Source: an uncultured Bacteroides sp.
Lineage (GTDB): Bacteria; Bacteroidota; Bacteroidia; Bacteroidales; Bacteroidaceae
Direction: 5' to 3'
Length of the DNA: 64,000 bases
Assembly: GCA_964554265.1 (NCBI GenBank)
Contig: CAZKOB010000002.1
Location: 386-64,385 of the forward strand
Of the stretch, positions 8,320 to 61,928 are shown piece by piece. Numbering within the stretch: position 1 is the first letter of the stretch; the number at the start of each line of letters is the position of its first letter. The position numbers and the translations under genes are program-made. Under the pieces are notes generated by a model. The model did no database searches and was not told where the DNA came from. It worked only from the letters and a program-made list of their open reading frames with translations.

Positions 8320-8756
8320 TTAAGGTGGTGTATTCGCAGGGGTTTCTCGTGGATTTTGATGGGCTTTAAACTGATGTATCCACGAGAAGAGTCTGTGAGT
8401 ACACAAGCAAAGGCAACTGTCTTTCTTATGAGCGTTTCTTCTTTCTTTTTGACACAAAATCCACCCGTTGCAGACAGAACCTTATTAACACAATTAAGAT
8501 TCGTTTACATTCTTCGGATTGCCAAGTTTTTAAATATTTATTGATAAGTAATTAATAATCAATAAGATACTATTTTGATAAAACTATGCGGTTTTAGATG
8601 CAAGAAGTACAGGTTGGAACAAAAATAGGATATGCTGATAATCAGTAAGTTATAAAAATTCTTGTCCAAGATTTCTGTTTTCCGCCACCAAAACCTATCT
8701 TTGTTTTTCGTGACATTGAAAAATCCGATTTCAGTTTTTTTAAGAAATTCATTTGG
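8320..8756 (+). repeat. Interspersed repeat, copy B. Only the left-hand part is present, and it breaks off abruptly at about 8756.
   Basis: Contains ttcttctttctttttgacac (8438-8455), ttattaacacaattaagattcgtttacat, tgataatcaataag, agatgcaagaagtacaggttgg, aaaataggatatgctgataatcag and ctatctttgtttttcgtgacattgaaaaatc. Homology to other copies stops after taagaaattcatttg. The left boundary is approximate. Confidence 0.85.
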
Positions 8757-14604: not shown

Positions 14605-15417
14605 AGAACTCTTAGAGACATTTCTTCTTTCTTTTTGACACTAAGTCCACCTATCGCGGATGGAATCTTTTTAACACAATTAAGGTTCATTTGCATTTGA
14701 ATGATTGCTGATTTCTTGATAATTTGTAGATAAATGATTGATAATCAAAAAAATACTATTTGGGTAGAACGGTGCAGTTTTAGATGCAAGAAGTACAGGT
14801 TGGGACAAAAATAGGAAATGTTGATAATCAACAAGTTATGAAATTATTCATCCAAAAATCCTGTTTTTCGTCGCCGGAATCTATCTTTGTTTTTCGTGGC
14901 ATTGAAAAATCCGATTTAAACTTTTTAAGAATTTAATTTGTGCAGCACCAAATTTCTGTCCGAAAAACGGACGTTTTCAAACTCGTGCACCTTGAAAATA
15001 AATTTCGTTCACCTTGAAAAAATTTTTAAAGCGCCTTTTAAACAAATTTGGTGCACCTTGAAAATTTATTTTCAGCGTACTCTTTTTTCAGACGATGCAC
15101 ACGCGAATGTGAATAAATGTATCTTTTCGGAGCGAAAATTGTATTGTTTTCACATTTGAATTTCAAGGCCTGAAAATGGCCTCAGAATCGCAAAAATGGA
15201 ACTTCGGTAAGGTTCGGCCGATTTTAAGCGATTCTACGGGCTTTGAATTTTAACATTTCAGATTGTCAGAAAAAGTCCGTAATTTATGACAAATAGATGG
15301 TATGGAGTGGAGATGACCAAACTGATTTATGAAGACCTTAGAACTCATGAAAAGACATCAAAGAAAACGCGAGAATCTTCGATGAGAATGTTTTGGTGAC
15401 ACGATGCCGAAGTCAGG
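14605..15417 (+). repeat. Interspersed repeat, copy C. The core is present but the left-hand module is missing.
   Basis: Runs from the ttcttctttctttttgacac block (about 14621) to ggtgacacgatgccgaagtcagg (ends at 15417). Its internal three-repeat segment is in the direct-repeat configuration. Confidence 0.9.
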
Positions 15418-15471
15418 AAATACGACTTGTGAAGAAGCTCATATCCGTGCCTTTTGTATGGATTGGGAATC

Positions 15472-20735: not shown

Positions 20736-20780
20736 CATCCGGCCATGCAAAATATCGGTTGCATGGCCGGATGTGTTTAT
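20736..20780 (+). terminator. Rho-independent terminator after the fucosidase gene
   Basis: catccggccatgcaa / ttgcatggccggatg form a 15-bp stem, followed by tgtttat. Confidence 0.7.
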
Positions 20781-20781
20781 G

Positions 20782-21600
20782 AACAGTTCTTCTTTCTTTT
20801 TGACAATAACTCCACCTGCCGCAAACGAAACTTTATTAACATAATTAAGATTCGTTTACATTCTGCCAATAGCCGAATTTGGGATGTTTTGTTGATAAAT
20901 AATTGATAATCAGTAAAATGCTGTTTCAGCAAAACGATGCGGTTTCAGGTGCAAAAGGTATAGGTGGAAACAAAAATAGGATGTGTTGATAATCAGCAGG
21001 TTATAGAATTATTTATCTAAAACCCTTGTTTTTCGTTGCCGGAATCCATCTTTGTTTTTCGTGGCATTGAAAAATCTGATTTAGACTTTTTAAGAAATTA
21101 ATTTGTGCAACACCGGATTTCAGCCCGAAAAACGGACGTTCTCAACTTCGTTCACCTTGAAAATAAATTTCGTTCATCTTGAAAATGTTTTTAAAGTGCC
21201 TTTTAAACAAATTTTGTTCACCTTGAAAATTTATTTTCAGCGTACTCTTTTTTCAGGCAAAGCATAAGCAAATGTAAATTAATGTATCTTTTCAGGCAGT
21301 AAATTATATTATTTTTACATTTGAGATTCAAGGCCCGAAAACGGCCTTAGAATCGCGTAAATGGAACTTCGGTAAGGTTTGGGCGATTTTATGCGATTCT
21401 GCGAGGCTTGGATTTTAACATTTCAGATTGTCAAAAAAAAGCCCGGAATTTATGACAAGTTGATAGTATATGACGGTGGGGGAAATCAAGCTGATTGATG
21501 AAGACATCAGCCTTGTTGCAGTGTGATGGCCGGACTGATAAACGAGGTCTATATCTTGGCAAATTCATTCTTTTTTAGTATTTTTGCGGAAACTGAATAT
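20782..21600 (+). repeat. Interspersed repeat, copy D. The core is present, with the alternative right-end module.
   Basis: Starts at the ttcttctttctttttgacaat block. Its internal segment is in the direct-repeat configuration. The right end (...ccttgttgcagtgtgatggccggactgataaacgaggtctatatct...aaactgaatat) matches copy E rather than A, C, F, H or I. Confidence 0.88.
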
Positions 21601-24741: not shown

Positions 24742-25977
24742 TACGCGAGTTCAGTTTAAATTTCCGGTTAAAAAAGGTTCCGGTTGCCCTTGCATTCTTC
24801 AATATGTATCTGCCGTGCCTCCGGCTTGTTGCTGAAAAGGGAATACGCCGTAAGTGTGGTGTAGATGTTCGCAAGGATGTTTGCAGTTGTTTTTTGCCGG
24901 TGGGGTTATAGATGACTCTTGTGATGCTTATGGTTGTAAGTGGTTGTATTCACAGACTCCTCCGTCGCTTCGCGCCACCTCCCCTAACTTAGGGGAGGAG
25001 CCTGGTTACTCAGTGGGTGTAAATGCTATCATGTTATCAACCAGCAAGTTGGCTTACAGTTGGCTTTTCAGCGAGCAAGGTAACTAAGCTCCTCCCCTAA
25101 GTTAGGGGAGGTGGCGCGAAGCGACGGAGGAGTCTGTGAAGACAACAGCAAAAACAGCTGACTTTCTTATAGACTTTTCTTCTTTCTTTTTGACACTAAC
25201 TCCACCTGTCGCAGACGGAACTTTATTAACATATTTAAGGTTCATTTACATTCAGCCAATAGCCGAAATTCCGAAGTTTTATTGATAAATGATTGATAAT
25301 CAATAAAATACTATTTTAGCAAGATGATGCAGTTTTAGGTGCAAGAAGCACAGGTTGTAACAAAATAGGATATATTGATAATCAGCGAGTTATGAAATTT
25401 CTTACCCAAGATTCTTGTTTTTCGCCGCCAAAATCCATCTTTGTTTTTCGTGGCATTGAAAAATACGATTTAATCTTTTTAAGAAATAAATTTGCACAAC
25501 ACCTGATTTCAGCCCGAAAAACGGACGTTTTCAAACTCGTTCACCCTGAAAATAAATTTTGTGCGCCTTGAAAAATTTTTTACAAGGCACTTTAAAACTA
25601 TTTTCAAGGTGAATGAAATTTATTTCCAGCGTACTCTTTTTACGGGCGATTCACGCACAAATGTGAATAAATGTATCTTTTCAAAACAAAAATTACATTA
25701 TTTTTACATTCTCGGTTCAAGGCCCGAAAACGGCCTCAGAATCGCGCAAATGGAACTTTGGTAAGGTTTGGCCGATTTTATGCGATTCTACGGAGCCTTG
25801 AATTTTAACATTTCAAATTGTCAAAAAAAACTTGAATTTTATGACAAACAGACGGTGTGACGGTGGGGATGACCAAGCCGGTTTATGAGGATGTCTGCCC
25901 TGTTGCAGCCTGACAGTCGGACTGACAAATAAGGTCTATATCTGCACTGATTCGTCGCTTAAAACCGAACTTGCGTA
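24742..25977 (+). repeat. Interspersed repeat, copy E. Full length, with terminal inverted repeats and the nested short-arm palindrome.
   Basis: The left end tacgcgagttcagtttaaa (24742-24760) is an imperfect inverted copy of the right end cttaaaaccgaacttgcgta (25958-25977). All internal blocks are present. It carries the alternative right-end module shared with copy D. Confidence 0.88.
24951..25138. repeat. Nested palindromic module in copy E
   Basis: Left arm 24951-25001 (cacagactcctccgtcgcttcgcgccacctcccctaacttaggggaggagc) is the exact reverse complement of right arm 25088-25138. The loop is 86 nt. Confidence 0.95.
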
Positions 25978-43039: not shown

Positions 43040-44247
43040 TACGCGGGTTCGGTTTAAGAAAGTCCTGTAAAAGTTGGTAAGTAGGTGTTTTTACAGATGA
43101 CTATAGCTTGTGTTTTTGGGGGATTTTCGCAGATGTATTCACAGATGACTCTTATAATTCTTATGGTTATAAGCAGGTGTATTCACAGACTCCTCCGTCG
43201 CTTCGCGCCACGCCCTCCGTCGCAAGCTCCCCAATTGCTCCTATTCCGCAATTGCCCCTAACTTAGGGGAGGAGCCTGGTTTCCTTGTTCGCTGGAATAT
43301 CAATGATAGGTTAATATGTTGAATATCATTGGCGCGAAGCGACGGAGGAGTCTGTGAAGGCACCTGCAAAAACAACTGACTTTCTCAGAAACATTTCTTC
43401 TTTCTTTTTGTCACAAAAACTACTCGTTGCGGACGGAATCTTATTAACATAATTAAGATTTGTTTATATTTACTCAACCGTCTAAATTTTGATATTTCAT
43501 AGATAAACGATTGATAATCAATAAAATACTATTTTAGCAAAACAGTGCAGTTTTAGGTACAAGAAGTACAGGTTGTGACAAAAATAGGATACACTGATAA
43601 TCAGTAAGTTATGAAAATACCTGGCTGAGATTCCTGTTTTCTGCTACCAAAATCCATCTTTGTTTTTCGTGGCATTGAAAAATGTGATTTAGACTTTTTA
43701 AGAAAGTAATTTGTGCAACACCGGATTTCAACCCGAAAAACGGACTATCTCAAACTCGTTCACCTTGAAAATAAATTTCGTTCACCTTGCAATTTTTTTT
43801 ACAAGGCATTTTAAAACCTTTTTCAAGGTGAACGAAATAAATTTTCAGCGTACTCTTTTTTCAGGCGAGGCACACACGAATGTGAATAAATGTATCTTTT
43901 CAGAATGTGAATTATATTATTTTTACATTTGGGGTTCAAGGCTTGAAAACGGCCTTAGAATCGCGTAAATGGAACTTCAGTAAGGTTCGGTCGATTTTAT
44001 GCGATTCTACGAGTCTTGAATTTTAACATTTCAAATTGTCAAAAAAAGTCCGTAATTTATGACAAATGGATAGCGGAGATGAGACAACCACACTGATTTA
44101 CGAGAACATTGGGGCACATGAAAAGGCATCAAAGAACAGCGAAACTCTTCGATGAGAATTTTGGGGCGACACGATGACGAAGTCAGGGTGCATAAACATG
44201 CAAGATTACCAACTTTTTATAGGACCTTCTTAAATCGAATTCGCGTA
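43040..44247 (+). repeat. Interspersed repeat, copy F. Full length, with terminal inverted repeats and a nested long-arm palindrome whose right arm is truncated.
   Basis: Left end tacgcgggttcggtttaagaaagtcc (43040-43065) against right end ggaccttcttaaatcgaattcgcgta (44222-44247): 22 of 26 positions are complementary. All internal blocks are present, including ggcgacacgatgacgaagtcagg, which ends at 44187. Confidence 0.88.
43184..43356. repeat. Nested palindromic module in copy F (long left arm, truncated right arm)
   Basis: The left arm cacagactcctccgtcgcttcgcgccacgccctccgtcgcaagctccccaattgctcctattccgcaattgcccctaacttaggggaggagc matches the copy I arms. Only ggcgcgaagcgacggaggagtctgtg remains of the right arm. 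Confidence 0.85.
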
Positions 44248-49854: not shown

Positions 49855-51318
49855 ATGCAGAATGAAGGACATAAAGGAGTGATGAAGTCTTTGGACTGGT
49901 GGACTATCGGTCTATATCTTGTCTTGATTACATGGGGATGGTTTTCTGTATGCGGAGCAAGCTACGATTTCAGTAATCCTGATGTTTTCAGTCTTGGTTG
50001 CAATTCCGGCAAACAACTCTTGTGGGCCGGGACTTCTGTGTGCCTTGCCGGCACGCTTCTTTTGATTGAGAAAAGATTCTTCGATACGGCTTCCTATTAT
50101 ATATATATAGTAATGATTGGAGTGCTTGTTGTGACAATCATTGTTGCGCCCGATACAAAAGGTTCGCGTTCGTGGTTGCCTATCGGGTCATTTATGAAAA
50201 TACAGCCGGCTGAGTTTGCCAAGTTTGCTGTTGCTCTGACCATAGGGAAATACATGGACCGGTATGGTTTTGATATACATAATCTGAAGGATTTTGGCAG
50301 AGTGGTGGGACTCATACTGTTGCCGATGGTGCTCATTGTGTGCCAGAAAGAAACAGGGACAGCACTTGTTTATCTCTCTTTCTTTCTTGTGCTTTATCGA
50401 GAAGGAATGACGGGCGCTTTTCTTTTTGCTGCATTTGCGGCTGTGGTCTACTTTGTTGTGGGTATACGTTTTGGCGATGAACTTATCCCTGACATGCCTG
50501 TTTCTGTCGGTGAGTTTACGGTGCTGCTGTTGTCAATGCTGTTCACTGTCGGCATGACGCTTGTGTTTTGTCATAACATTAAAGCCGTCAAACTGATGTT
50601 TTTTGGAGGAGGCGGAACTATTCTTCTTGCATACCTTTTTTCTGCATACGTGATTCCTTTCAATGTGTGTCATGTCATGCTTGCTGTCAATATTGCCGTT
50701 ATTCTGTATCTGCTGATACTTGCCATATATACTCGTTTGTACACTTATCTGCTGATAGGCTTGTTTGCCATTGCCTCTACCGGTTTCTTTTATATGTGCC
50801 ACAAAATGTTCAATGCACTTGATGACCATCAGCGTGTACGTATTGAAGTGCTTCTTGGCATGAAAGAAGATCTGCGTGGTGCCGGATATAATGTGAATCA
50901 GGCTAAGATTGCCATCGGTTCTGGAGGGTTTTATGGAAAGGGTTTTCTTAATGGTACACAGACTAAATTGAAGTATGTGCCCGAACAGGATACGGACTTT
51001 ATCTTTTGTACTGTCGGTGAAGAAGAAGGTTTCATCGGTGCGTCAGCCGTATTGATTGTCTATCTGCTTTTTATATGGAGGTTGATTTTTGTCGCAGAGC
51101 GCCAGCCTGACACGATGGGACGTGTCTATGGCTACTCAGTCATAAGCATCTTCCTTTTCCATTTGTTCATAAATGTAGGCATGGTGCTCGGACTTACTCC
51201 TGTCATCGGTATTCCTCTGCCGTTTTTCAGCTATGGAGGTTCTTCTTTGTGGGGATTTACCATTCTTTTGTTCATTTTTCTGAGAATGGACGCAGAGAGA
51301 AATCTTAAAAAGAGGTAA
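49855..51318 (+). CDS. rodA: SEDS-family peptidoglycan glycosyltransferase RodA
   Basis: Polytopic SEDS protein (..QPAEFAK.., ..PVIGIPLPFFSYGGSS..). The ORF opens with TTG at 49819, and in-frame ATGs lie at 49855 and 49882, so the exact start is uncertain. Confidence 0.9.
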   Translation: MQNEGHKGVMKSLDWWTIGLYLVLITWGWFSVCGASYDFSNPDVFSLGCNSGKQLLWAGTSVCLAGTLLLIEKRFFDTASYYIYIVMIGVLVVTIIVAPDTKGSRSWLPIGSFMKIQPAEFAKFAVALTIGKYMDRYGFDIHNLKDFGRVVGLILLPMVLIVCQKETGTALVYLSFFLVLYREGMTGAFLFAAFAAVVYFVVGIRFGDELIPDMPVSVGEFTVLLLSMLFTVGMTLVFCHNIKAVKLMFFGGGGTILLAYLFSAYVIPFNVCHVMLAVNIAVILYLLILAIYTRLYTYLLIGLFAIASTGFFYMCHKMFNALDDHQRVRIEVLLGMKEDLRGAGYNVNQAKIAIGSGGFYGKGFLNGTQTKLKYVPEQDTDFIFCTVGEEEGFIGASAVLIVYLLFIWRLIFVAERQPDTMGRVYGYSVISIFLFHLFINVGMVLGLTPVIGIPLPFFSYGGSSLWGFTILLFIFLRMDAERNLKKR

Positions 51319-51389: not shown

Positions 51390-52390
51390 TTTACGGTCAA
51401 TCGTTCTCGTCGAAGATTCTCGCTGTTCTCTGATGCCTTTTCATGGGCCCTGACGTCCTCATCAATCAGTTTGGTTATTCCATTCCACTATCTATTTGTC
51501 ATAAATCATGGGTTTTTCTTGATAATTTGAAATGTTAAAATTCAAGGCTCGCAGAATCGCATAAAATCGGCCGGACCTTACCAAAGTTCCATTTGCGCAA
51601 TTCTGAGGCTGTTTTCAGACTTTTAGCCCCAAGTGTAAAAATAATATAATTTGCATTCCGAAAAGATACATTTATTCACATTCGCGCGTGCATCGCCTGA
51701 AAAAAGAGTACGCTGGAAATAAATTTCGTTCACCTTGAAAATAGTTTTAAAGTGCCTTGTAAAAAATTTTTCAAGGTGAACGAATTTTATTTTCAAGGTG
51801 AACGAGTTCGAAAATGTCCGTTTTTCGGGCTGAAATAGGGTTTGACTAAATTTGATTTCTTAAAAAATCTGAATTGGATTTTTCAATGCCACGAAAAACA
51901 AAGACGGGTTTTGGCGACGAAAAACAGGAATTTTGGGCAAGATTTTTTTATAACTTATTGATTGTCAACATATTCTATTTTATCCCGACCCGTATTTCTT
52001 GCATCTGAAACCGCATTGTTTTGCTGAAATAGTATTTTACTGATTATCAATTGCTTATCTGTGAAATGTCAAAATTTAGACAGTTGATTAAGTGTAAATT
52101 AGTCTTAATTATGTTAATAAAGTCCCGTCAGTTAAAAGTGAACTTAGTGTCAAAAAGAAAGAAGAAATGTTCATAAGAAAATCAGCTGTTTTTGCTGTTG
52201 TATTCACAGACTCCTACTTTAAATCATCAATTTTACAAAAGTCGCCCGTGGAAACACCAGCTCACAACCATAAGAATCACAAGAATCATCCATGAATCCC
52301 CCGGCAACACACACAACCGATTCACTTTTTGAATCGATTTTCGCGTATCACCCAAAACCGCAGACATTAGAATTACAATCTATTAATATT
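51390..52390 (-). repeat. Interspersed repeat, copy G (reverse orientation). It includes the left-hand module, but the palindrome is reduced to a stub.
   Basis: The reverse complement carries every core block (e.g. gtgtcaaaaagaaagaagaa at about 52148-52167, ccgaaaagatacatttattcacatt, gaatcgcataaaatcggcc). Both boundaries are approximate to within a few tens of nt. Confidence 0.85.
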
Positions 52391-52545
52391 TAATCACTTA
52401 TAAACCTCAACATATTTTTTCAAAGAAATATGGCCCCAAAAAAGCAGGAACTTTTTCTTCTGTAAGTTCGCAATATTGGAAAAAATCTATCTACATCAAG
52501 TATTTTTTCTTATATTTACAGCATAAATTCAAAAAAACAGGTCCT

Positions 52546-53376
52546 ATGGAGAAAAGAGCGGAATACATACAGAGCATAGAAATAAAGGCTCTCTGGAAAG
52601 GAGGACGACATATTGAATGGCATCTGCGTCCTGACGTCAACATCCTCAGTGGAATAAACGGAGTAGGAAAAAGTACAATCATAAACCACTCCGTAAAAGT
52701 GCTCGACTTGATTGACAGCGGAGAACTGCGCCCCGGAGAAGTAATACAAGGCATCAACATCAAATTGTATCCGGAGGATGCCACAACTATGAAATTCGAT
52801 GTAATACGCAGTTTTGATCGTCCGCTTCTCAATAGCGACTTGCTTGAGAAACTGTCGGATTCAAGAGTAAGGACAGAACTTGACTGGCAGATATACAAGC
52901 TCCAGAAACGCTATCTTGACTATCAGGTGAATATCGGAAACAGGATTATCGAACTGCTGACAAGCAGCAATCCGGAAAACCAGTTGTTAGCGACGGAAGT
53001 GTCCAAACCCAAGATGCAATTCCAAAATATCATAGATGAACTGTTCAAAGACACATTGAAGAAGATAGACCGCAAAAGCAATGAAATACTGTTTATACAG
53101 AACGGTGAAAGGCTGACCCCCTACCAGCTTTCTTCCGGAGAAAAACAAATGCTTGTAATCATGCTGACCGTGCTTGTAGAAAATGGGGAGCACTACGCAT
53201 TACTGATGGATGAACCGGAAATAAGTCTGCACATAGAATGGCAGCAGCAGCTTATCAAGCTGATACGAGAACTCAATCCGAACGCACAGATAATTCTGTC
53301 AACTCATTCCCCGGCCTTAATCATGGACGGATGGATAGACAAAGTGACAGAGGTTACAGATGTTACCATGAAATAA
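52546..53376 (+). CDS. Compact ABC-type (AAA_21/AAA_15-like) ATPase, AriA-like
   Basis: Walker A SGINGVGKST, ABC-signature-like LSSGEKQ, Walker B ALLMDEPEISLH and an H-loop-like STHSP, in only 276 aa. It lies 16 nt upstream of the DUF4435-like gene. Confidence 0.8.
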   Translation: MEKRAEYIQSIEIKALWKGGRHIEWHLRPDVNILSGINGVGKSTIINHSVKVLDLIDSGELRPGEVIQGINIKLYPEDATTMKFDVIRSFDRPLLNSDLLEKLSDSRVRTELDWQIYKLQKRYLDYQVNIGNRIIELLTSSNPENQLLATEVSKPKMQFQNIIDELFKDTLKKIDRKSNEILFIQNGERLTPYQLSSGEKQMLVIMLTVLVENGEHYALLMDEPEISLHIEWQQQLIKLIRELNPNAQIILSTHSPALIMDGWIDKVTEVTDVTMK

Positions 53377-53392
53377 AGAAAGGGCTGCGAGT

Positions 53393-54484
53393 ATGGCTAA
53401 AACTCTGACAGACAATCTGACTTCGCGATATTTCAATGCCGCCAACAAGCTACGTCCGGGAAAGAAGAAACAAAAAATCATAGCCTACGTCGAGAGCTAT
53501 GACGACATCTTCTTCTGGAGGAGTGTGTTCTCTGAATACGAAACCGATGAGCGCACATTTGAGGTCGTGTTGCCTTCACGAACCAAACTATCACGCGGAA
53601 AGAAAACAGCCATGATGAACCGGCTCGGAGTGAACCTCGGAACGAGCATGATTGCATGTGTCGATGCCGACTATGACTATCTGCTGCAGGGCAAGACACA
53701 GTTTTCGCACCAGATGCTGTCCAATCCTTATATTTTCCATACTTATACGTATGCTATAGAGAACTACCAGTGCTATGCACCAAGCCTGCATAACGTATGC
53801 GTTATGGCCACTCTCAACGACCGTCAGGTGTTCAATTTTGAGGCTTATCTGCGCAGCTATTCCGAAATCATATACGATCTGTTCGTCTGGTCTGTCTGGA
53901 TGTACCGGGAAGAACACTACAAAGACATGCCGCTAACGACATTCTGCAACTTCATAGCTGTCAACCATGTAAATCTTTACCATCCGGAAAAAGCTCTTGA
54001 AGAACTGCGGCATGTGGTGAACCGCAAGATGGCATGGATGCAAAAGCATTATCCACAGGCGCGCGGACAGATAAAACCGTTAAAAGAAGAGCTGCAAACT
54101 CTTGGGGTCCGTCCGGACAACACTTATTTATATATACAAGGACACCACCTGCTCGACAATGTAGTGATGCAAGTACTCGACCCTGTGTGCACTCTGTTGA
54201 GAAGGGAACGGGAAAAAGAAATAAAGAGGCTTGCCGGACATACCCAGCAAATGGACAACGAATTATCAAGCTATATGCACAGCCAATGCCCGATAGACCA
54301 AATGGTGAGACGCAATACTTCATTCAAGCAATCGGAGCCTTACCAAAGACTGAAGAATGACATCGAGGCTTTTCTGCAACGAATAGACAACAACGGAAAT
54401 ACGGATAAACAAAAGACAGAAACGGAAGACAGTCAAGCGGTCAAGCTGTTAACAAATGAGGAGGAAGCCGACAAGCCATTCTGA
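53393..54484 (+). CDS. DUF4435 / OLD-type Toprim-like protein, AriB-like
   Basis: Conserved acidic pattern expected of DUF4435/Toprim: IIAYVESYDD (Glu), ACVDADYDYL (DxD) and YAIENY. It has an acidic, low-complexity C-terminal tail. The domain assignment is by motif recognition only. Confidence 0.65.
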   Translation: MAKTLTDNLTSRYFNAANKLRPGKKKQKIIAYVESYDDIFFWRSVFSEYETDERTFEVVLPSRTKLSRGKKTAMMNRLGVNLGTSMIACVDADYDYLLQGKTQFSHQMLSNPYIFHTYTYAIENYQCYAPSLHNVCVMATLNDRQVFNFEAYLRSYSEIIYDLFVWSVWMYREEHYKDMPLTTFCNFIAVNHVNLYHPEKALEELRHVVNRKMAWMQKHYPQARGQIKPLKEELQTLGVRPDNTYLYIQGHHLLDNVVMQVLDPVCTLLRREREKEIKRLAGHTQQMDNELSSYMHSQCPIDQMVRRNTSFKQSEPYQRLKNDIEAFLQRIDNNGNTDKQKTETEDSQAVKLLTNEEEADKPF

Positions 54485-54544
54485 ATGCACGGCAAAGGAG
54501 GTAAGCAAAAACCAAATACGTTTTCCAAATACACCAGAAAAAAT

Positions 54545-54579
54545 ACCGCAGCCTGTATGAACAAAGTACAGGCTGCGGT
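54545..54579 (+). terminator. Terminator after the two-gene ATPase/DUF4435 cassette
   Basis: accgcagcctgta / tacaggctgcggt form a 13-bp perfect stem, followed by gttatta. Confidence 0.65.
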
Positions 54580-54644
54580 GTTATTATGTCATAAATCAAA
54601 CGGGCATACTTGCCCACAGTTATAAACCTAAACTTTATATTAAT

Positions 54645-55253
54645 ATGACATCTTGTGTTTTAGCAAAAATCGTTATCGCCACACTGCCTTATGCAACAAA
54701 TGCGCTTGCACCGGTAATTTCAGAGGAAACCATCAATTACCATTATGGCAAACATTACCAGACCTACGTGGACAATCTCAATGCCAAGATTGCAAATACG
54801 GAATGGGAAGGAATGTGCCTTGAAGAACTTGTCAAGAACGTACCGGAAGGCCCGTTGTTCAACAATGCAGGACAAGCGCTGAACCATCAACTGTATTTTT
54901 TGCAGTTCAGACCGGCCGAACAAGCCGTGACAGAGCCTTCGGAAAAAATGACAAAGAAAATCAATGAAGCATTCGGTTCTGTAGAAAAAATGAAACAAGC
55001 CATGACCTCGTCTGCCGGTGCCTTGTTCGGAAGCGGATGGATATGGCTTGAAGCCGACGACAACAGCAGACTCTACATCAGTTCTTATGCTAACGGCGAC
55101 AACCCTGTAAGGCACGGCCGACATCCTATTATCGGAGTTGACGTATGGGAACATGCCTATTATCTTGACTGGCAGAACAGACGCACAGCACATGTCGATG
55201 CTCTGTGGAAGATTATCGACTGGAATGTTGTAGAAGAACGTATGCCGAAATAA
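54645..55253 (+). CDS. sodB: Fe/Mn superoxide dismutase
   Basis: [25 protein letters not shown]-type N-terminus and the [10 protein letters not shown] signature. Confidence 0.93.
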   Translation: [202 protein letters not shown]

Positions 55254-55584: not shown

Positions 55585-57249
55585 ATGTGTGGAATAACAG
55601 GAATATTCGGTATCAAGGAGCAGACTCCCGAACTAAGAAAAAAGGCATTGAGAATGTCACAGAAAATTCGTCACCGTGGTCCCGACTGGAGCGGAATATA
55701 CTGCGGAAAAACGGCAATACTGGCCCACGAACGATTGTCAATCGTTGATCCTGAATCGGGCAAACAGCCCCTGTTCTCCCCCGACGGCAAACAGATTCTG
55801 GCTGTCAACGGAGAAATCTACAATCATCGTGACATCCGAGCAAAATACGCCGGAAAGTATGAATTTCAAACCGGCTCCGACTGTGAAGTCATTCTTGCAC
55901 TATACCGCGACAAGGGAATAGAACTCTTTGAAGAACTCAGCGGAATATTTGCATTTGCACTATACGACGAGGAGCGCGATGAATTCCTCATCGGACGTGA
56001 CCCTATCGGTGTCATACCGCTTTACATAGGACACGATCGCGACGGTCTGGTGTATGTAGGCAGCGAACTCAAGGCTCTTGAAGGATTCTGCGATGAATAC
56101 GAGCCTTTCCTTCCTGGACATTACTACTGGAGCAAGGAGGGAAAGCAAAAACGATGGTACAGGCGCGATTGGACAGAGTATGATGCCGTAAAGCACAATC
56201 CAGCCAACAAGGAGGCTCTGCGCGATGCGCTTGAAGATGCCGTGCGCAGGCAACTGATGAGCGATGTGCCATACGGTGTACTTCTATCCGGCGGACTCGA
56301 CAGTTCCGTCATATCTGCAATTGCCGCCAAATATGCCGGCAGACGTATCGAGACAAACAGCACGGAGAAGGCATGGTGGCCCCGTCTACATTCCTTTGCT
56401 GTAGGTCTGAAAGGCGCTCCGGACCTGGAGAAGGCGCGTATTGTGGCAGAACATATCGGCACGGTACACCACGAAATAAACTACACCATACAGGAAGGCA
56501 TTGATGCCATACGCGATGTAATATACTTTATAGAGACTTACGACGTCACGACAGTGCGCGCAAGCACCCCCATGTATCTTCTCGCCAGAGTCATAAAGAG
56601 CATGGGAATCAAAATGGTTCTTTCCGGCGAAGGTGCAGACGAAGTGTTCGGAGGCTATCTGTATTTCCATAAGGCCCCGAACGCCCAGGCTTTCCACGAA
56701 GAGACCGTACGCAAACTGTCCAAACTGCATCTCTACGACTGCCTCCGCGCCAACAAGAGTCTTTCGGCATGGGGAGTAGAAGGGCGCGTGCCGTTCCTTG
56801 ACAAAGAGTTTCTTGATGTCGCCATGCGCCTCAATCCGGAGGCGAAGATGTGTCCGGGAAACAGCATCGAAAAGCGCATTGTCCGCGAAGCCTTCGCTGA
56901 TATGCTGCCGGAAAGCGTAGCATGGCGGCAAAAAGAACAGTTCAGCGACGGTGTAGGCTACAGTTGGATTGACACTCTGAAGCAAATGACCTCCGAACAG
57001 GTGAGCGATGAGCAAATGGCCAATGCCGCGGAGCGTTTTCCTATCAATACACCAATGAACAAGGAAGAGTATTTCTACCGTTCCATATTCGAGGAACACT
57101 TCCCAAGCGAGAGTGCTGCACGATGCGTCCCGAGTGTCCCGAGCGTGGCATGTTCAACAGCAGAGGCTCTCGCATGGGATGCAAGTTTCAAGAACATGAA
57201 CGACCCCAGCGGACGCGCCGTGAAAGGGGTGCACGAACAAGCGTACTAA
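55585..57249 (+). CDS. asnB: Asparagine synthase (glutamine-hydrolysing)
   Basis: N-terminal nucleophile MCGI and PP-loop LLSGGLDSS; 554 aa. Confidence 0.95.
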   Translation: MCGITGIFGIKEQTPELRKKALRMSQKIRHRGPDWSGIYCGKTAILAHERLSIVDPESGKQPLFSPDGKQILAVNGEIYNHRDIRAKYAGKYEFQTGSDCEVILALYRDKGIELFEELSGIFAFALYDEERDEFLIGRDPIGVIPLYIGHDRDGLVYVGSELKALEGFCDEYEPFLPGHYYWSKEGKQKRWYRRDWTEYDAVKHNPANKEALRDALEDAVRRQLMSDVPYGVLLSGGLDSSVISAIAAKYAGRRIETNSTEKAWWPRLHSFAVGLKGAPDLEKARIVAEHIGTVHHEINYTIQEGIDAIRDVIYFIETYDVTTVRASTPMYLLARVIKSMGIKMVLSGEGADEVFGGYLYFHKAPNAQAFHEETVRKLSKLHLYDCLRANKSLSAWGVEGRVPFLDKEFLDVAMRLNPEAKMCPGNSIEKRIVREAFADMLPESVAWRQKEQFSDGVGYSWIDTLKQMTSEQVSDEQMANAAERFPINTPMNKEEYFYRSIFEEHFPSESAARCVPSVPSVACSTAEALAWDASFKNMNDPSGRAVKGVHEQAY

Positions 57250-57317: not shown

Positions 57318-58279
57318 TACGCGAGTTCGGTTTAAGAAAGTCCTATAATATAAAAAGTGGTAATCTTGCAAGTTTTTTGCCGGTGGATTTACAGGCTTCT
57401 CTTGTGATTCTTACTGTTGTTTTCACAGAATCCTCCAATTTGTGAATACACCGGCAAAAACAGCGAGCTTTCTTAGTGGCATTTCTTCTTTCTTTTTGAC
57501 ACCAAGTCCACCCATTGCAAACGGACTTTTATTAACATAATTAAGATTCGTTTACACTTGTCCGGCTATCGAATTTTTGAAATTTTATTGATAAGCGATT
57601 GATAATCAAAGAAATACTATTTCAGCGAAACTATACAGTTTCAGGTGCAAGGAGTATAAGTTGAAACAAAAATAGGATGTGTTGATAATCAATGAGTTAT
57701 AAAAAATCTTGTCTAAGATTTCTATTTTTCGTCGCCAAAACCCATCTTTGTTTTTCGTGGCATTGAAAAATCTGTTTTTGATTTTTTAAGAAATCACTTT
57801 TAGTCAATGTCCAATTTCAGCCTGAAAAACGGGCATTCTCAAACTCGTTCACCTTGAAAATAAATTTCGTTCACCTTGAAAATTTTTTTGCAAGGCACTT
57901 TAAAACCATTTCCAGGGTGAACAAAATTTATTTCCAGCGTACTCTTTTTTCAGGCGAGGCACGCGCGAATGTGAATAAATGTATCTTTTCGGAATGCAAA
58001 TTATATTATTTTTATATTTTGGATTCAAGGCTTGAAAACGGCCTTAGAATCGCGTAAATGGAACTTCGGTAAGGTTCGGCCGATTTTACGCGATTCTGCG
58101 AGCCTTGAATTTTAACATTTCAGATTGTCAAGAAAAGCCCATAATTTATGACAATCAGATGGTGTGAAGGTAGGGATGACCAAGCAGATTTATGAGGAGA
58201 TTAGGACTCATGAAAAAGATATCAAAGAAAGCACGGAACTCTTCGATGGGAATTTTTTTGTGATACGATGACGAAGTCA
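57318..58279 (+). repeat. Interspersed repeat, copy H. The left-hand module is present and the palindrome is reduced to a stub.
   Basis: Starts with tacgcgagttcggtttaagaaagtcc. It has cacagaatcctccaatttgtgaatac where other copies carry the long palindrome. The core blocks run through gatacgatgacgaagtca (ends at 58279). Confidence 0.88.
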
Positions 58280-58406
58280 CACAAAAACGCAGAAAAACAA
58301 ACGGACAGAATATCAAAAACAAGGAAACAGATTCTAAAAAAAACGGAAGCATAGATTCCGCTATACTTCCGACAATTAATCATTTTGAAGAAAAACACGA
58401 ACCGTG

Positions 58407-59735
58407 TCACTGCGTCATACGGAATGCCACAGGAGTGTTATATTTTACCTTGACAGGCCTGCCATTCCGCATGCCCGGCTTCCATTTGGGCATACTAAGT
58501 ATAGCCCTTATCGCTTCTGCATCAAGCAAAGGATGTACACTCTTGGTTATTTTCGGGTCTATGATACTGCCATCAGTATCTATAGTGAAAGAGACAAGAA
58601 CCCTCCCTTGAATACCTAAATCCATTGCTGCCGACGGATATTTAACATTTTTAGCCCAAAAACTTAGCAGTGCCTCCATTCCTCCCGGAAACTCCGGCAT
58701 CTTTTCCACAACCTGATACACTTGCTCTGTACTATCAGCCTGCGTCTCCCCACCATCTGCCTGCGCCTCATCTCCATTGTCGAAATCATCTTCGGCCATT
58801 ACACCTCTTGCCTTCATAATTTCATCGAAAGACAATGCTCCGGGTGTCAATTCAAATATCACTGGAATTTCTACACACGAGCGCACAACCATCCCGAAAT
58901 GTTTGGCCGATTCCCAATCCGGCATTGCTTTGACAATACGAATTGCTTCTTTTTCAAACAGAGGATCACATTCATTCACTACCTTAATGCCTGTAAGCAT
59001 TCCACTCTGTTCGACTATACACGATACAAAGGCCACACCTTGCAAACCTTGATTTTTCGCTTGCTCAGGATATTTCATCAGAGCCTTTATAAAAAGAAAC
59101 ATATTGCCGCTGCCTCCGGGGTAAGATGCTTTACATTCCGGAGAAAGAATAACCTTGTTTGCCAAATTCCCGATTCGGGTTTTGGGTTTCACCACAGGGA
59201 CATCCGAATCAGTCTGATTGGACGAAGCCACAGGAGCGGTCTTGTCTTCCACAATACGAAAAGCCACAGGAACGCTATATTTCACCTTGACTACAGTGCC
59301 GTTTTGCTTTCCCGGAATCCATTTGGGCATGGTTTGAATCACTCTCTTTGCCTCATCATCAAGCAAGGGATGGACGCTTTTCACGACCTTAGGATCGACA
59401 ATGCTGCCATCGGTATCCACAGTGAAAGAGACTACAACCCTCCCTTGAATGCAACTATCCAATGCCACAGCCGGATATTTGACATTCTGGGCAAGATAAT
59501 TGAACTGTGCTTCCATTCCACCCGGAAACTCCGGCATCTGTTCCACAACCTGATACACCTGCCCTGAAATATCAACGGTATCCCTTTTCGCCACCACGAG
59601 GTCTGCCTCATATACACGGCCGAACGAAGCTCCGACATCGGCCACAGCGAACCCCTGTGCGGAGGCCGATATCACAGAGCACGCACATATCAGCCTTATC
59701 CGCTTAGGCAAGGGGGTAAAAAATCTTAAATACAT
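58407..59735 (-). CDS. Secreted protein with three TonB C-terminal-like domains
   Basis: Three copies of the pattern MPEFPGG..(N/K)VKYP..A....IQGRV.VSF.(V/I)D.DGS(I/V)..P.......P.LD.EA.R.....PKW.PG..NG..V.V.Y..PV.F. The middle copy is divergent. The N-terminus looks like a signal peptide rather than the usual TonB anchor plus Pro-rich linker. Confidence 0.85.
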   Translation of the reverse strand: MYLRFFTPLPKRIRLICACSVISASAQGFAVADVGASFGRVYEADLVVAKRDTVDISGQVYQVVEQMPEFPGGMEAQFNYLAQNVKYPAVALDSCIQGRVVVSFTVDTDGSIVDPKVVKSVHPLLDDEAKRVIQTMPKWIPGKQNGTVVKVKYSVPVAFRIVEDKTAPVASSNQTDSDVPVVKPKTRIGNLANKVILSPECKASYPGGSGNMFLFIKALMKYPEQAKNQGLQGVAFVSCIVEQSGMLTGIKVVNECDPLFEKEAIRIVKAMPDWESAKHFGMVVRSCVEIPVIFELTPGALSFDEIMKARGVMAEDDFDNGDEAQADGGETQADSTEQVYQVVEKMPEFPGGMEALLSFWAKNVKYPSAAMDLGIQGRVLVSFTIDTDGSIIDPKITKSVHPLLDAEAIRAILSMPKWKPGMRNGRPVKVKYNTPVAFRMTQ

Positions 59736-60693: not shown

Positions 60694-61928
60694 CCTGACT
60701 TCGTCATCGTGTCACTCCAAAAATTCTCATCGGAGAGTTTCGCTGTTCTTTGATATCTTTTCATGTGTCCTGACGTCCTCATAAATCTGCTCGGTTATCC
60801 CATCTTCACACTATCTTTTTGTCATAAATTGCAGGGTTTTCTTGATAATCTGAAATGTTAAAATTCAAGGCTCGCAGAATCGCATAAAATCGACCGGACC
60901 CGACTGAAATTCCGTTTGTGCGATTCTGAGGCCATTTTCAGGCCTTGAAATTCAAATGTAAAAATAATATAATTTGTATTCTGAAAAGATACATTTATTT
61001 ACACTCGCGTGTGCTTTGTTTGAAAAAAGAGTACGCTGGAAATAAATTTCGTTCACCTTGAAAATGTTTTTAAAGTGCCTTGTGAAAAATTTTTCAAGGT
61101 GAACAAAATTTATTTTCAAGGTGAACGAGTTTGAGAACGTCCGTTTTTCGGGCTGAAATTGGATATTGACTATAATTGATTTCTTAAAAAATCAAAATCG
61201 GATTTTTCAATGCCACGAAAAACAAAGATGGATTCCGGCAGCGAAAAACAGGAATCTTGGACAGGATTTTTTATAACTTGCTGATTATCAGTATATCCTA
61301 TTTTTATCTTCGCTTGTACTTCTTGCACCTAAAACTGCATTATCTTGTTAAAATAGTATTTTCTTGATAATCAATTGTTTATCTGTAAAATATCAAAACT
61401 TTGATAATTGAGTGAATGCAAACGAATCTTAATTGTGTTAAAAAGCTTCCATCCGATATGGATGGAGTTAGTGTCAAAAAGTAAGAAGAAATGTCTCTAA
61501 AAAAACTGTTGCTTTTGCTGGTATATTCACAGACTCCTCCGTCGCTTCGCGCCACGCCCTCCGTCGCAAGCTCCCCAATTGCTCCTATTCCGCAATTGCC
61601 CCTAACTTAGGGGGGAGGAGCTTAGTTACCTTGCTCGTTGGAAAGTTAATAGTAAGCTAATATGCTGGTTACTAATATGATAGCATTTACATCTGCTGAG
61701 TAACCAGACTCCTCCCCTAAGTTAGGGGCAATTGCGGAATAGGAGCAATTGGGGAGCTTGCGACGGAGGGCGTGGCGCGAAGCGACGGAGGAGTCTGTGA
61801 AAACACCAACTTGCAGCCATAAGATTTATAAGAGGAGTCTGTGAATACACTTGCTCTGTTTTGAAGCGATTTTCGCGTATCACCTTAAACCGTAAGCATT
61901 AGAATTACAGCCTATTGGCATTTATGTG
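60694..61928 (-). repeat. Interspersed repeat, copy I (reverse orientation). Full-size, with the long-arm palindrome.
   Basis: Begins on the plus strand with cctgacttcgtcatcgtgtcac and contains all core blocks and the palindrome. It is flanked by 23-nt direct repeats at 60671-60693 and 61929-61951. Confidence 0.88.
61528..61799. repeat. Nested palindromic module in copy I (arms of about 90 nt)
   Basis: The arms cacagactcctccgtcgcttcgcgccacgccctccgtcgcaagctccccaattgctcctattccgcaattgcccctaacttagggg... and their reverse complement match, apart from a 2-nt G-run difference. The loop is about 85 nt. Confidence 0.92.

Follow-up and report, generated by a model that had tools for sequence, protein, structure and literature searches.

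A compact PARIS-like ATPase–DUF4435 gene pair, syntenic and vertically inherited in Bacteroidaceae

PARIS has been understood through one architecture, in which a 464-residue ATPase, AriA, assembles into a hexamer with pores that senses the anti-restriction proteins of phages: in the canonical system a propeller-shaped AriA6:AriB3 complex sequesters the nuclease AriB, Ocr acts as the trigger, and the released AriB cleaves tRNA. A gene pair in a 64,000-nucleotide stretch of DNA from an uncultured Bacteroides sp. (assembly GCA_964554265.1, contig CAZKOB010000002.1, positions 386 to 64,385; hereafter the window) raises the question of whether a far more compact pair belongs to the same family, and whether it is a defence system. 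Gene 1 (52546-53376, + strand) is a 276-residue open reading frame (ORF) for a compact AriA-like ATPase with an ABC/SMC-type head, and gene 2 (53393-54484, +), which begins 16 nt further on in the same orientation, is a 363-residue ORF for a DUF4435 protein. An earlier note on this DNA had proposed a minimal PARIS-like defence cassette here; its coordinates, orientations and spacing for the two ORFs proved exact, and every motif that it quoted was found in the translations. Our answer, held with a probability of roughly 0.55, is that the pair is a compact PARIS-family ATPase–nuclease module, an autonomous two-gene operon that is chromosomally fixed and vertically inherited in Bacteroidaceae. 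The parts of this answer differ in firmness: homology to the PARIS family is highly probable, an ATPase-gated nuclease mechanism, argued by analogy, seems somewhat favoured, and an immune role has about an even chance.

Gene 1 carries the motifs SGINGVGKST (residues 35-44), LSSGEKQ (195-201), LLMDEPEISLH (219-229) and STHSP (252-256), which contain Walker A (G36-T44), the signature (S196-Q201), Walker B (D222-E223) and the H-loop (H254); residues 224-234 make up the D-loop/SLHIEWQ helix. Searches with Pfam hidden Markov models upheld its earlier assignment to the ABC/AAA_15-AAA_21 ATPases (AAA_15, 3.7e-17, 63.4 bits; AAA_21, 3.4e-16, 60.6 bits), with SMC_N matched over the whole length at 1.2e-10. 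The PADLOC AriA profile PDLC04164 was matched from position 3 to position 251 of 253 (2.5e-56), and AriA was also the best match among PDB sequences (8UX9, 8V45 and 8V46; 1.2e-13). An AF2 model (pTM 0.81) has an ABC/SMC-type head with just one helical hairpin (H111-138 and H144-166) as its insertion, and Foldseek with this model returned AriA chains first (E 4e-10, TM about 0.5) and PtuA second.

The likeness to AriA is concentrated at Walker A and in the C-terminal block. The PDB alignment is restricted to residues 29-49 (AriA 26-46, Walker A) and 194-265 (AriA 365-434), and between these blocks gene 1 has 144 residues versus 318 in E. coli AriA; hhalign with the 419-residue AriA of a P2-like phage covered residues 170-259 only (43% identity, probability 99.4%). 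In AriA, IS1 (residues 122-180), beside the pores, is predicted to recognise the trigger, whereas IS2 (242-289) extends the coiled coil and allows the hexamer to assemble (PMC11464382). With 144 residues and one hairpin, gene 1 has no space for IS1 or IS2; it has 276 residues against the 464 of E. coli AriA, and the coiled coil is reduced to a hairpin of ~56 residues, so that the earlier remark on a much shorter ATPase without the long insertion stands. Truncation does not account for the short form, because orthologs of gene 1 are uniformly 271-283 aa long, and a search of a representative library gave at least 298 clusters (50% identity) at E ≤ 1e-30 in the short-ATPase class, mostly of 270-350 aa. 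A large compact class thus keeps the ATPase head and the Toprim nuclease without the modules thought to sense the trigger and assemble the complex.

Gene 2 bears out its proposed identity as a DUF4435/Toprim protein. It matched Pfam DUF4435 at 4.6e-53 (180.9 bits, profile positions 2-237 of 238), and its matches in PADLOC-DB were to AriB profiles only (PDLC02983 at 2.7e-63; PDLC04165 at 4.1e-35, positions 20-271 of 289). Its model (pLDDT 88) comprises an alpha/beta core at ~27-128, a helical domain at ~129-330 and a low-confidence C-terminal helix or tail, so that residues 1-330 (53393-54382, +) hold the Toprim core and the large helical domain. The motifs AYVESYDD (31-38), CVDADYDY (89-96) and YAIENY (120-125) contain the acidic residues E34, D38, D91, D93 and E123, which correspond by motif to the Toprim metal-binding residues E26, D30, D88, E90 and E122 of E. 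coli AriB (PMC11464382). The AriB of a P2-like phage itself matches DUF4435 at 1.1e-25, and hhalign placed its motifs opposite those of gene 2 (YVESYDD with YVEGPDD, ACVDAD with ACDAD, AIEN with SIEN), at a probability of only 36%. The acidic C-terminal tail to which the earlier note had drawn attention (residues 331-363 and the stop codon, 54383-54484, +) exists in the window, where it is acidic and polar, but is not a conserved feature: conservation is 0.02-0.13 there versus 0.5-0.87 in the remaining protein, its pLDDT is 48-68, its length and composition differ among homologs, and many orthologs end at about residue 330.

How tightly are the two genes bound to each other? A scan of species-representative genomes gave 69 loci, nearly all from uncultured Bacteroidaceae/Prevotellaceae of herbivore guts, and also yielded loci of Prevotella aurantiaca and P. 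merdae; the pairing count below is over 78 loci, and the residue-invariance and co-evolution counts are over 73 orthologs. A DUF4435 gene lay immediately 3' of the ATPase gene and on the same strand in 78/78 loci, with the pair intact in all, across gaps of −7 to 306 nt; overlap or near contact of the genes is frequent. In pairwise comparisons, the identities of one protein follow those of the other (r = 0.90), the ATPase being the more conserved partner in 99.6% of the comparisons. Invariant in 73/73 orthologs were K42, S196-G198, D222-E223 and H254 of gene 1 and E34, D38, D91, D93, D95 and E123 of gene 2. At the canonical interface AriA D401 and E404 contact AriB R28 and R31; the D401 equivalent in gene 1, E231, is E or D in 73/73 orthologs, and the E404 equivalent, Q234, is Q or K. 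Judged from these comparisons, the ATPase and the DUF4435/Toprim protein are an obligate, co-evolving pair whose predicted catalytic sites are intact.

The constancy of the partner bears on the idea that gene 1 encodes an ABC transporter's ATPase subunit and has gene 2 as a fortuitous neighbour, to which a weak ABC_tran match (5.6e-6) and source names including 'ABC-type multidrug transport system, ATPase component' might point. For practical purposes this idea is refuted: a DUF4435 partner stands at every locus and no conserved permease adjoins, the ABC_tran match is far outscored by those to AAA_15, AAA_21, SMC_N and AriA, and the fold is nearest to AriA and PtuA.

The published rule for detecting PARIS is AAA_15 at 32 bits or more, or AAA_21 at 27 bits or more, with an adjacent DUF4435 at 27 bits or more (Rousset 2022, PMC9122126), and the gene pair classes as PARIS under it; with the PADLOC profiles, this confirms the PARIS-like architecture seen in the earlier note. 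PADLOC-DB v2 holds short profiles for AriA (PDLC04164, 253 positions) and AriB (PDLC04165, 289 positions) that fit the window pair, and since the dedicated short AriA profile fits gene 1 end to end, the compact class is already catalogued as PARIS. The suggestion of a divergent, uncharacterised subtype therefore holds in part: the class has its own profile, but no characterised PARIS with a short AriA turned up in the literature searched. The PARIS of the E. coli B185 P4 satellite (8UX9, 8V45-8V49; Rousset 2022, Burman/Deep 2024) likewise has an ATPase gene followed by a co-oriented DUF4435 Toprim gene; its AriA shares the C-terminal block of gene 1 (signature, Walker B, SLHIxWQ and H-loop), and the five Toprim acidic residues of its AriB recur in gene 2. 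E. coli PARIS lies on satellites and prophages, whereas the window pair is chromosomal, syntenic and vertically inherited. The same domain pair occurs at the P2-like phage hotspot (e.g., vB_EcoM-813R9), but with an AriA of 419 aa and on a mobile element, and on a lactococcal plasmid, again a mobile element, as proteins of 453 and 280 aa. DefenseFinder reports a 'PARIS' in B. fragilis NCTC 9343 (PMC13139388), which is presumably an ortholog of the window pair.

Other ATPase systems share single parts of this design. The PtuA proteins of Septu and of retrons have the same AAA_15/AAA_21 head type and give the next-best profile and structure matches (profiles at 6e-25 and below, partial); Septu, however, needs the HNH protein PtuB, whereas the partner in the window is a DUF4435 protein and no retron reverse transcriptase (RT) is present. 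OLD and Gabija GajA unite ABC ATPase and Toprim domains, the latter not of DUF4435 type, in one fused protein, whereas the window has two genes, and the GajA profile matched gene 1 weakly (2.6e-13) and in its C-terminal part only. RecF is an SMC-head ATPase without a long coiled coil that works with a separate Toprim protein, RecR, an architectural analogy to a compact head with a stub and a Toprim partner. The closest folds of gene 1 are nevertheless AriA and PtuA, not RecF; no RecF or RecR family model was among the NCBIfam hits for the pair, and neither protein matched an NCBIfam equivalog, housekeeping ones included.

The pair also appears to have its own signals for transcription. An alignment of the upstream regions of relatives delimited a promoter-like block 5' of gene 1 (52494-52518, +), nearly invariant as CATCAAGT..TTTT.C.CTATATTTACAGCA among the window and the loci L010, L011, L012 and L083 (loci of the comparison are numbered with the prefix L). 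The consensus of the Bacteroides promoter −7 element is TAnnTTTG, and TATATTTA at 52511-52518 matches it at 7/8 positions, ~28 nt 5' of the ATG. About 50 nt 5' of gene 1 are almost unchanged across the clade of the window, a 42-nt upstream segment has 88% identity in L008-L010, and in relatives the block directly abuts the terminator hairpin of the preceding gene; this conserved block may well serve as the promoter. A sigma-70 promoter scan, with 11 sites versus 10.2 expected, was uninformative. Downstream, a hairpin at 54542-54582 (+) with a 17-bp stem and a 7-nt loop has a folding energy of −30 kcal/mol and z = −7.76 against shuffles, 0/200 of which folded equally well. The hairpin previously placed at 54545-54579 is thus real and slightly longer than had been stated, and it probably acts as a terminator. 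The promoter-like block and the downstream hairpin would together make the gene pair a self-contained operon. No Rfam family reached the gathering score in the window or in the repeat upstream of gene 1, the matches being sub-threshold and of hairpin type, and no tRNA genes were found.

A plausible mechanism can be drawn by analogy with AriA and AriB. Two gene 1 heads, each carrying only a stub hairpin, would dimerise as an ATP sandwich in the manner of Rad50/RecF, and gene 2 would dock on a conserved gene 1 surface above the ATP sites, at the SLHI(E/D)WQ helix that holds the equivalents of AriA D401 and E404; docking would keep the metal-dependent Toprim nuclease inactive. A signal would then bring about an ATP-dependent conformational change by which the nuclease is freed or activated, and the active enzyme would cut RNA, most plausibly tRNA as AriB does, arresting translation. 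As gene 1 lacks IS1 and IS2, it cannot act as the Ocr sensor of the E. coli AriA6:AriB3 complex, and the signal would have to be read differently; the missing IS2 also argues against a hexamer. Candidate readers of the signal are the hairpin helix of gene 1 (residues 106-135), which is conserved as strongly as the catalytic motifs, and the helical domain of the nuclease. The pore residues of canonical AriA are reported to be poorly conserved. The conservation profile of the gene 1 orthologs revealed no hypervariable surface, and this uniformity suggests that the ligand is itself conserved and is not an arms-race target.

Several results weigh against the reading of the pair as a compact PARIS-family module, some touching its kinship with PARIS and others its role in defence. 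On the first count, phmmer with gene 2 and a clade profile of 47 sequences did not recover AriB from the PDB sequences, and Foldseek with the gene 2 model gave no match at E < 0.08 in PDB and BFVD, the sub-threshold matches being to Toprim, RloB and DnaG-like structures. Because AriB was not recovered from the PDB, the homology of gene 2 to AriB rests on the shared Pfam and PADLOC profiles and on the motif-level hhalign alignment. The contact arginines R28 and R31 of AriB are replaced by Y36 and I39 in gene 2; they are missing from a P2-like phage AriB as well. Searches of the literature found no experimentally characterised PARIS with a short AriA, those found having an AriA of 419-464 aa and being borne on mobile elements. 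Nor did the literature searched contain a publication that describes the short-AriA class by its structure, its trigger, its phenotype or its evolutionary behaviour, or anything relevant on DUF4435 in Bacteroides, on a PARIS of B. thetaiotaomicron or on core or vertically inherited PARIS.

On the second count, the surroundings of the pair are those of ordinary chromosomal genes. Upstream in the window lie mreB, mreC, a 169-aa ORF in the mreD position, PBP2 and rodA, which ends at 51318; a ~1 kb copy of a multi-copy repeat (51404-52392, −) separates rodA from gene 1, and downstream come sodB (54645-55253) and asnB (55585-57249). These flanks are as the earlier note described them. Across the loci, 128 non-redundant neighbours within two genes of the pair are nearly all housekeeping genes, and only ~6/128 match any PADLOC family at 1e-10 (e.g., mad2/mad3, an RT and PDC-S34), at least one of them through nothing more than a generic helicase domain. 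The context classes follow the protein clades (sodB-asnB, Cthe_2159/argS, TM2/DUF3109, TrkH-TrkA-DXS, CCA-adding enzyme/PurL and PurF-like/asnB). A single site, (A2M-DUF1573-MeaB-)EamA-pair-MscS, recurs in B. fragilis, B. intestinalis, B. finegoldii and B. heparinolyticus, and the pair is also present in B. thetaiotaomicron, B. pyogenes, B. bouchesdurhonensis and B. zhangwenhongii. Neither 50,697 phage records nor PHROGs contain a relative of gene 2, and alignment searches found no relative of either protein in 2.9 million viral contigs.

The divergence of the pair likewise resembles that of its neighbours. For most families of neighbouring housekeeping genes, identities of the ATPase track theirs at r = 0.94-0.99, with weaker correlations (r 0.62-0.84) for three, the TrpB-like, DUF3109 and XerD-like families, and the absolute conservation of the ATPase equals that of AsnB, DXS, TrkA and ArgS. 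Within the clade of the window, the ATPase has a dN/dS of 0.013-0.031 and the DUF4435 protein one of 0.025-0.077, next to 0.019-0.067 for SodB and 0.014-0.026 for AsnB, whose dS is similar to that of the pair; the divergence of the pair is bracketed by those of AsnB and SodB. All of the sampled members of this clade (6/6) have the order pair-sodB-asnB, and no empty site was seen. In Bacteroidaceae (Bacteroides, Phocaeicola and Prevotella) the pair is thus ancestral and syntenic, passed on vertically in the company of housekeeping genes.

This history contradicts the picture, given in the earlier note, of a defence cassette wedged in like an island, which the synteny, vertical inheritance, housekeeping neighbours and purifying selection all oppose, and the variable presence among relatives that such a picture entails was not seen in the six clade members. 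A defence role is weakened by conservation of a housekeeping kind, the note itself having named core conservation as an argument against defence; we keep the immune reading at about even odds.

Should the pair then be counted among the housekeeping genes themselves? On that account it would be a domesticated or ancestral ATPase–nuclease complex that acts on host nucleic acids, for example in RNA maturation or quality control, as the Toprim RNase M5 does, or in DNA repair, as RecF does with RecR; its mobile relatives would then be the immune systems of PARIS type. This is possible, and we hold it tentatively. Speaking for it are the conservation of the ATPase at the level of AsnB, DXS, TrkA and ArgS and its co-divergence with them, the dN/dS and dS equal to those of the flanking SodB and AsnB, the same chromosomal position in four Bacteroides species and in every sampled member of the window clade, and the overwhelmingly housekeeping neighbourhood. 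So do the lack of any copy on the phages, viral contigs and true plasmids searched, the lack both of a hypervariable sensing surface and of the trigger-recognition insertion of AriA, and the report that the defence systems of B. fragilis, the PARIS call included, are not differentially expressed on phage infection (PMC13139388). On the other hand, every characterised relative (PARIS, Septu PtuA, retron PtuA, OLD, Gabija) is an immune effector, and it is to such effectors, not to RecF, RecN or housekeeping ATPases, that the best matches in PDB, PADLOC and NCBIfam point; no housekeeping equivalog of NCBIfam matches either protein. A few neighbours do match defence profiles, and some bona fide defence systems are species-core, as in phylogeny-dependent arsenals (PMC9090908). 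A doubtful but serious form of the same thought is that the pair is a core, vertically inherited Bacteroidaceae module, found in the Bacteroides and Prevotella that dominate the human gut, for processing or surveillance of host tRNA/rRNA or DNA and not a classical phage defence, in which case the compact pair would be either a domesticated descendant or a cellular ancestor of mobile PARIS.

The opposite possibility, a recently acquired mobile defence cassette at the rodA-sodB junction that varies among strains and was perhaps mobilised by the repeat, is largely refuted, and we consider it very improbable. In its favour, the pair forms a unit complete in itself, with a promoter-like block and a terminator of its own, a multi-copy repeat lies alongside, and its immediate upstream neighbour is rodA in the window versus a gene for a Laminin_G_3 protein in the closest relatives. 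Its GC content (0.42-0.47), however, is that of the flanking genes, its dS is that of its neighbours, and pair, sodB and asnB stay together throughout the sampled clade. Relatives that have no repeat immediately upstream of the pair retain the promoter block, so the adjacency of the repeat in the window is incidental. No integrase or transposase adjoined the pair in the locus contexts, and the viral and phage collections held no copy; a XerD-like recombinase lies two to four genes from the pair in ~8 loci.

Similar evidence bears on a selfish toxin–antitoxin or addiction module, in which the nuclease would be the toxin, the ATPase the antitoxin and post-segregational killing the means of persistence. 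The depositors of the PDB entries call AriA an antitoxin, Pfam describes AAA_21 as a putative AbiEii toxin/type IV toxin–antitoxin domain, and the two genes are tightly coupled. Toxin–antitoxin modules are, however, typically patchy, multi-copy and mobile, whereas this pair occupies one conserved site per lineage, its divergence matches that of its hosts, and both partners have been under strong purifying selection over family-level divergence; such a module is thus quite improbable here.

What merits attention in the compact PARIS-family module is not the family call, which is routine, but the combination of an architecture without sensor insertions and deep, housekeeping-like conservation in dominant gut bacteria, across an entire family that is dominant in the guts of mammals. 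If the pair is immune, it is an unusual abortive-infection module, deeply conserved and non-mobile, with a conserved sensor outside the arms race. If the host-function reading were true, it would show an ATPase-gated Toprim nuclease working without the insertions that sense the trigger and form the hexamer. If detection tools count the pair as PARIS, censuses of defence systems in Bacteroides and Prevotella may be inflated. The genetically tractable B. thetaiotaomicron and B. fragilis both carry orthologs.

Some further observations concern the loci and their neighbours. About 5/128 of the neighbours are tRNA-related (ArgS, a CCA-adding/poly(A) polymerase family enzyme, GidA and a class-I aminoacyl-tRNA synthetase); argS stands beside the pair in L002-L007, L013 and L017, and a CCA/poly(A) polymerase-type gene does so in L065, L066 and L074. 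Given the tRNA target of AriB such neighbours are suggestive, yet they are not clearly above chance. A supposed Mokosh neighbour in L054 was rejected, the match being to the helicase domain only. In L008-L010, the closest species, a gene of ~503 aa with several methyltransferase-domain matches and a diverged copy of the repeat stand between the pair and sodB (e.g., L008 10080-11591, −), so the site tolerates insertions while the pair is kept. Look-ups of the exact proteins of gene 1, gene 2, SodB and RodA led to one other contig only, of 5 kb, and RodA was without a record; a metagenome scan based on SodB gave one close relative, L083, the other loci having at most 53% SodB identity and being uninformative. 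Loci of Bacteroidales type, with pair copies 76-92% identical, occur in metagenome-assembled genomes named 'Roseburia sp.', 'Candidatus Methanomethylophilaceae archaeon' and 'Acutalibacteraceae bacterium' (L010, L040 and L047, and also L041), names that likely reflect mis-binning or mislabelling.

Apparent plasmid and phage copies were also looked into. Matches to 'plasmid' records were rejected as evidence of mobility, as their gene content is chromosomal (A2M, MeaB, MscS and a TonB receptor) and they are typed as non-mobilizable. The PLSDB records concerned, NZ_OY725943.1 ('plasmid 41', B. finegoldii; L079) and OY726067.1 ('plasmid: 93', Phocaeicola massiliensis; L080), are probably chromosomal contigs mislabelled as plasmids. 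Several E. coli plasmids of 5.3 kb (e.g., NC_005970.1 and NC_017636.1; ~5.36 kb) contain an ORF ~20% identical to gene 2 at 65-72% coverage; this ORF, unannotated or 'hypothetical', could represent a DUF4435-like gene carried by cryptic plasmids. An ATPase of Fusobacterium phage Fnu1 (L082, 3016-3792) was dropped as a phage copy of the pair, as it has no DUF4435 partner: this 258-aa AAA_15/AAA_21 protein is 27% identical to gene 1 over the full length and is followed by a 136-aa protein without a Pfam match.

The repeat beside gene 1 belongs to a non-coding family of 0.8-1.2 kb with at least nine copies in 64 kb, 75-90% identical, always intergenic and in both orientations. The copies lie approximately at 1-455, 8390-8740, 14610-15420, 20770-21450, 25128-25891, 43111-44190, 51404-52392 (−), 57441-58284 and 60724-61924 (−), and the diverged copies in the relatives L008-L010 have 67% identity. 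Within the copy adjacent to gene 1 lies a hairpin of ~100 nt (51704-51806) with sub-threshold matches of miRNA-precursor type only, and the family carries an ORF of 57-67 aa (51623-51796, −; 57854-58057, +). A 97-nt segment is 98% identical between 43173-43269 and 61517-61613, far above the repeat copies around it. Elsewhere in the window, a TonB-like ORF (58407-59735, −) has three TonB_C stretches and a direct repeat of ~300 nt (58417-58716 and 59254-59553), the two units being 74% identical and 837 nt apart.

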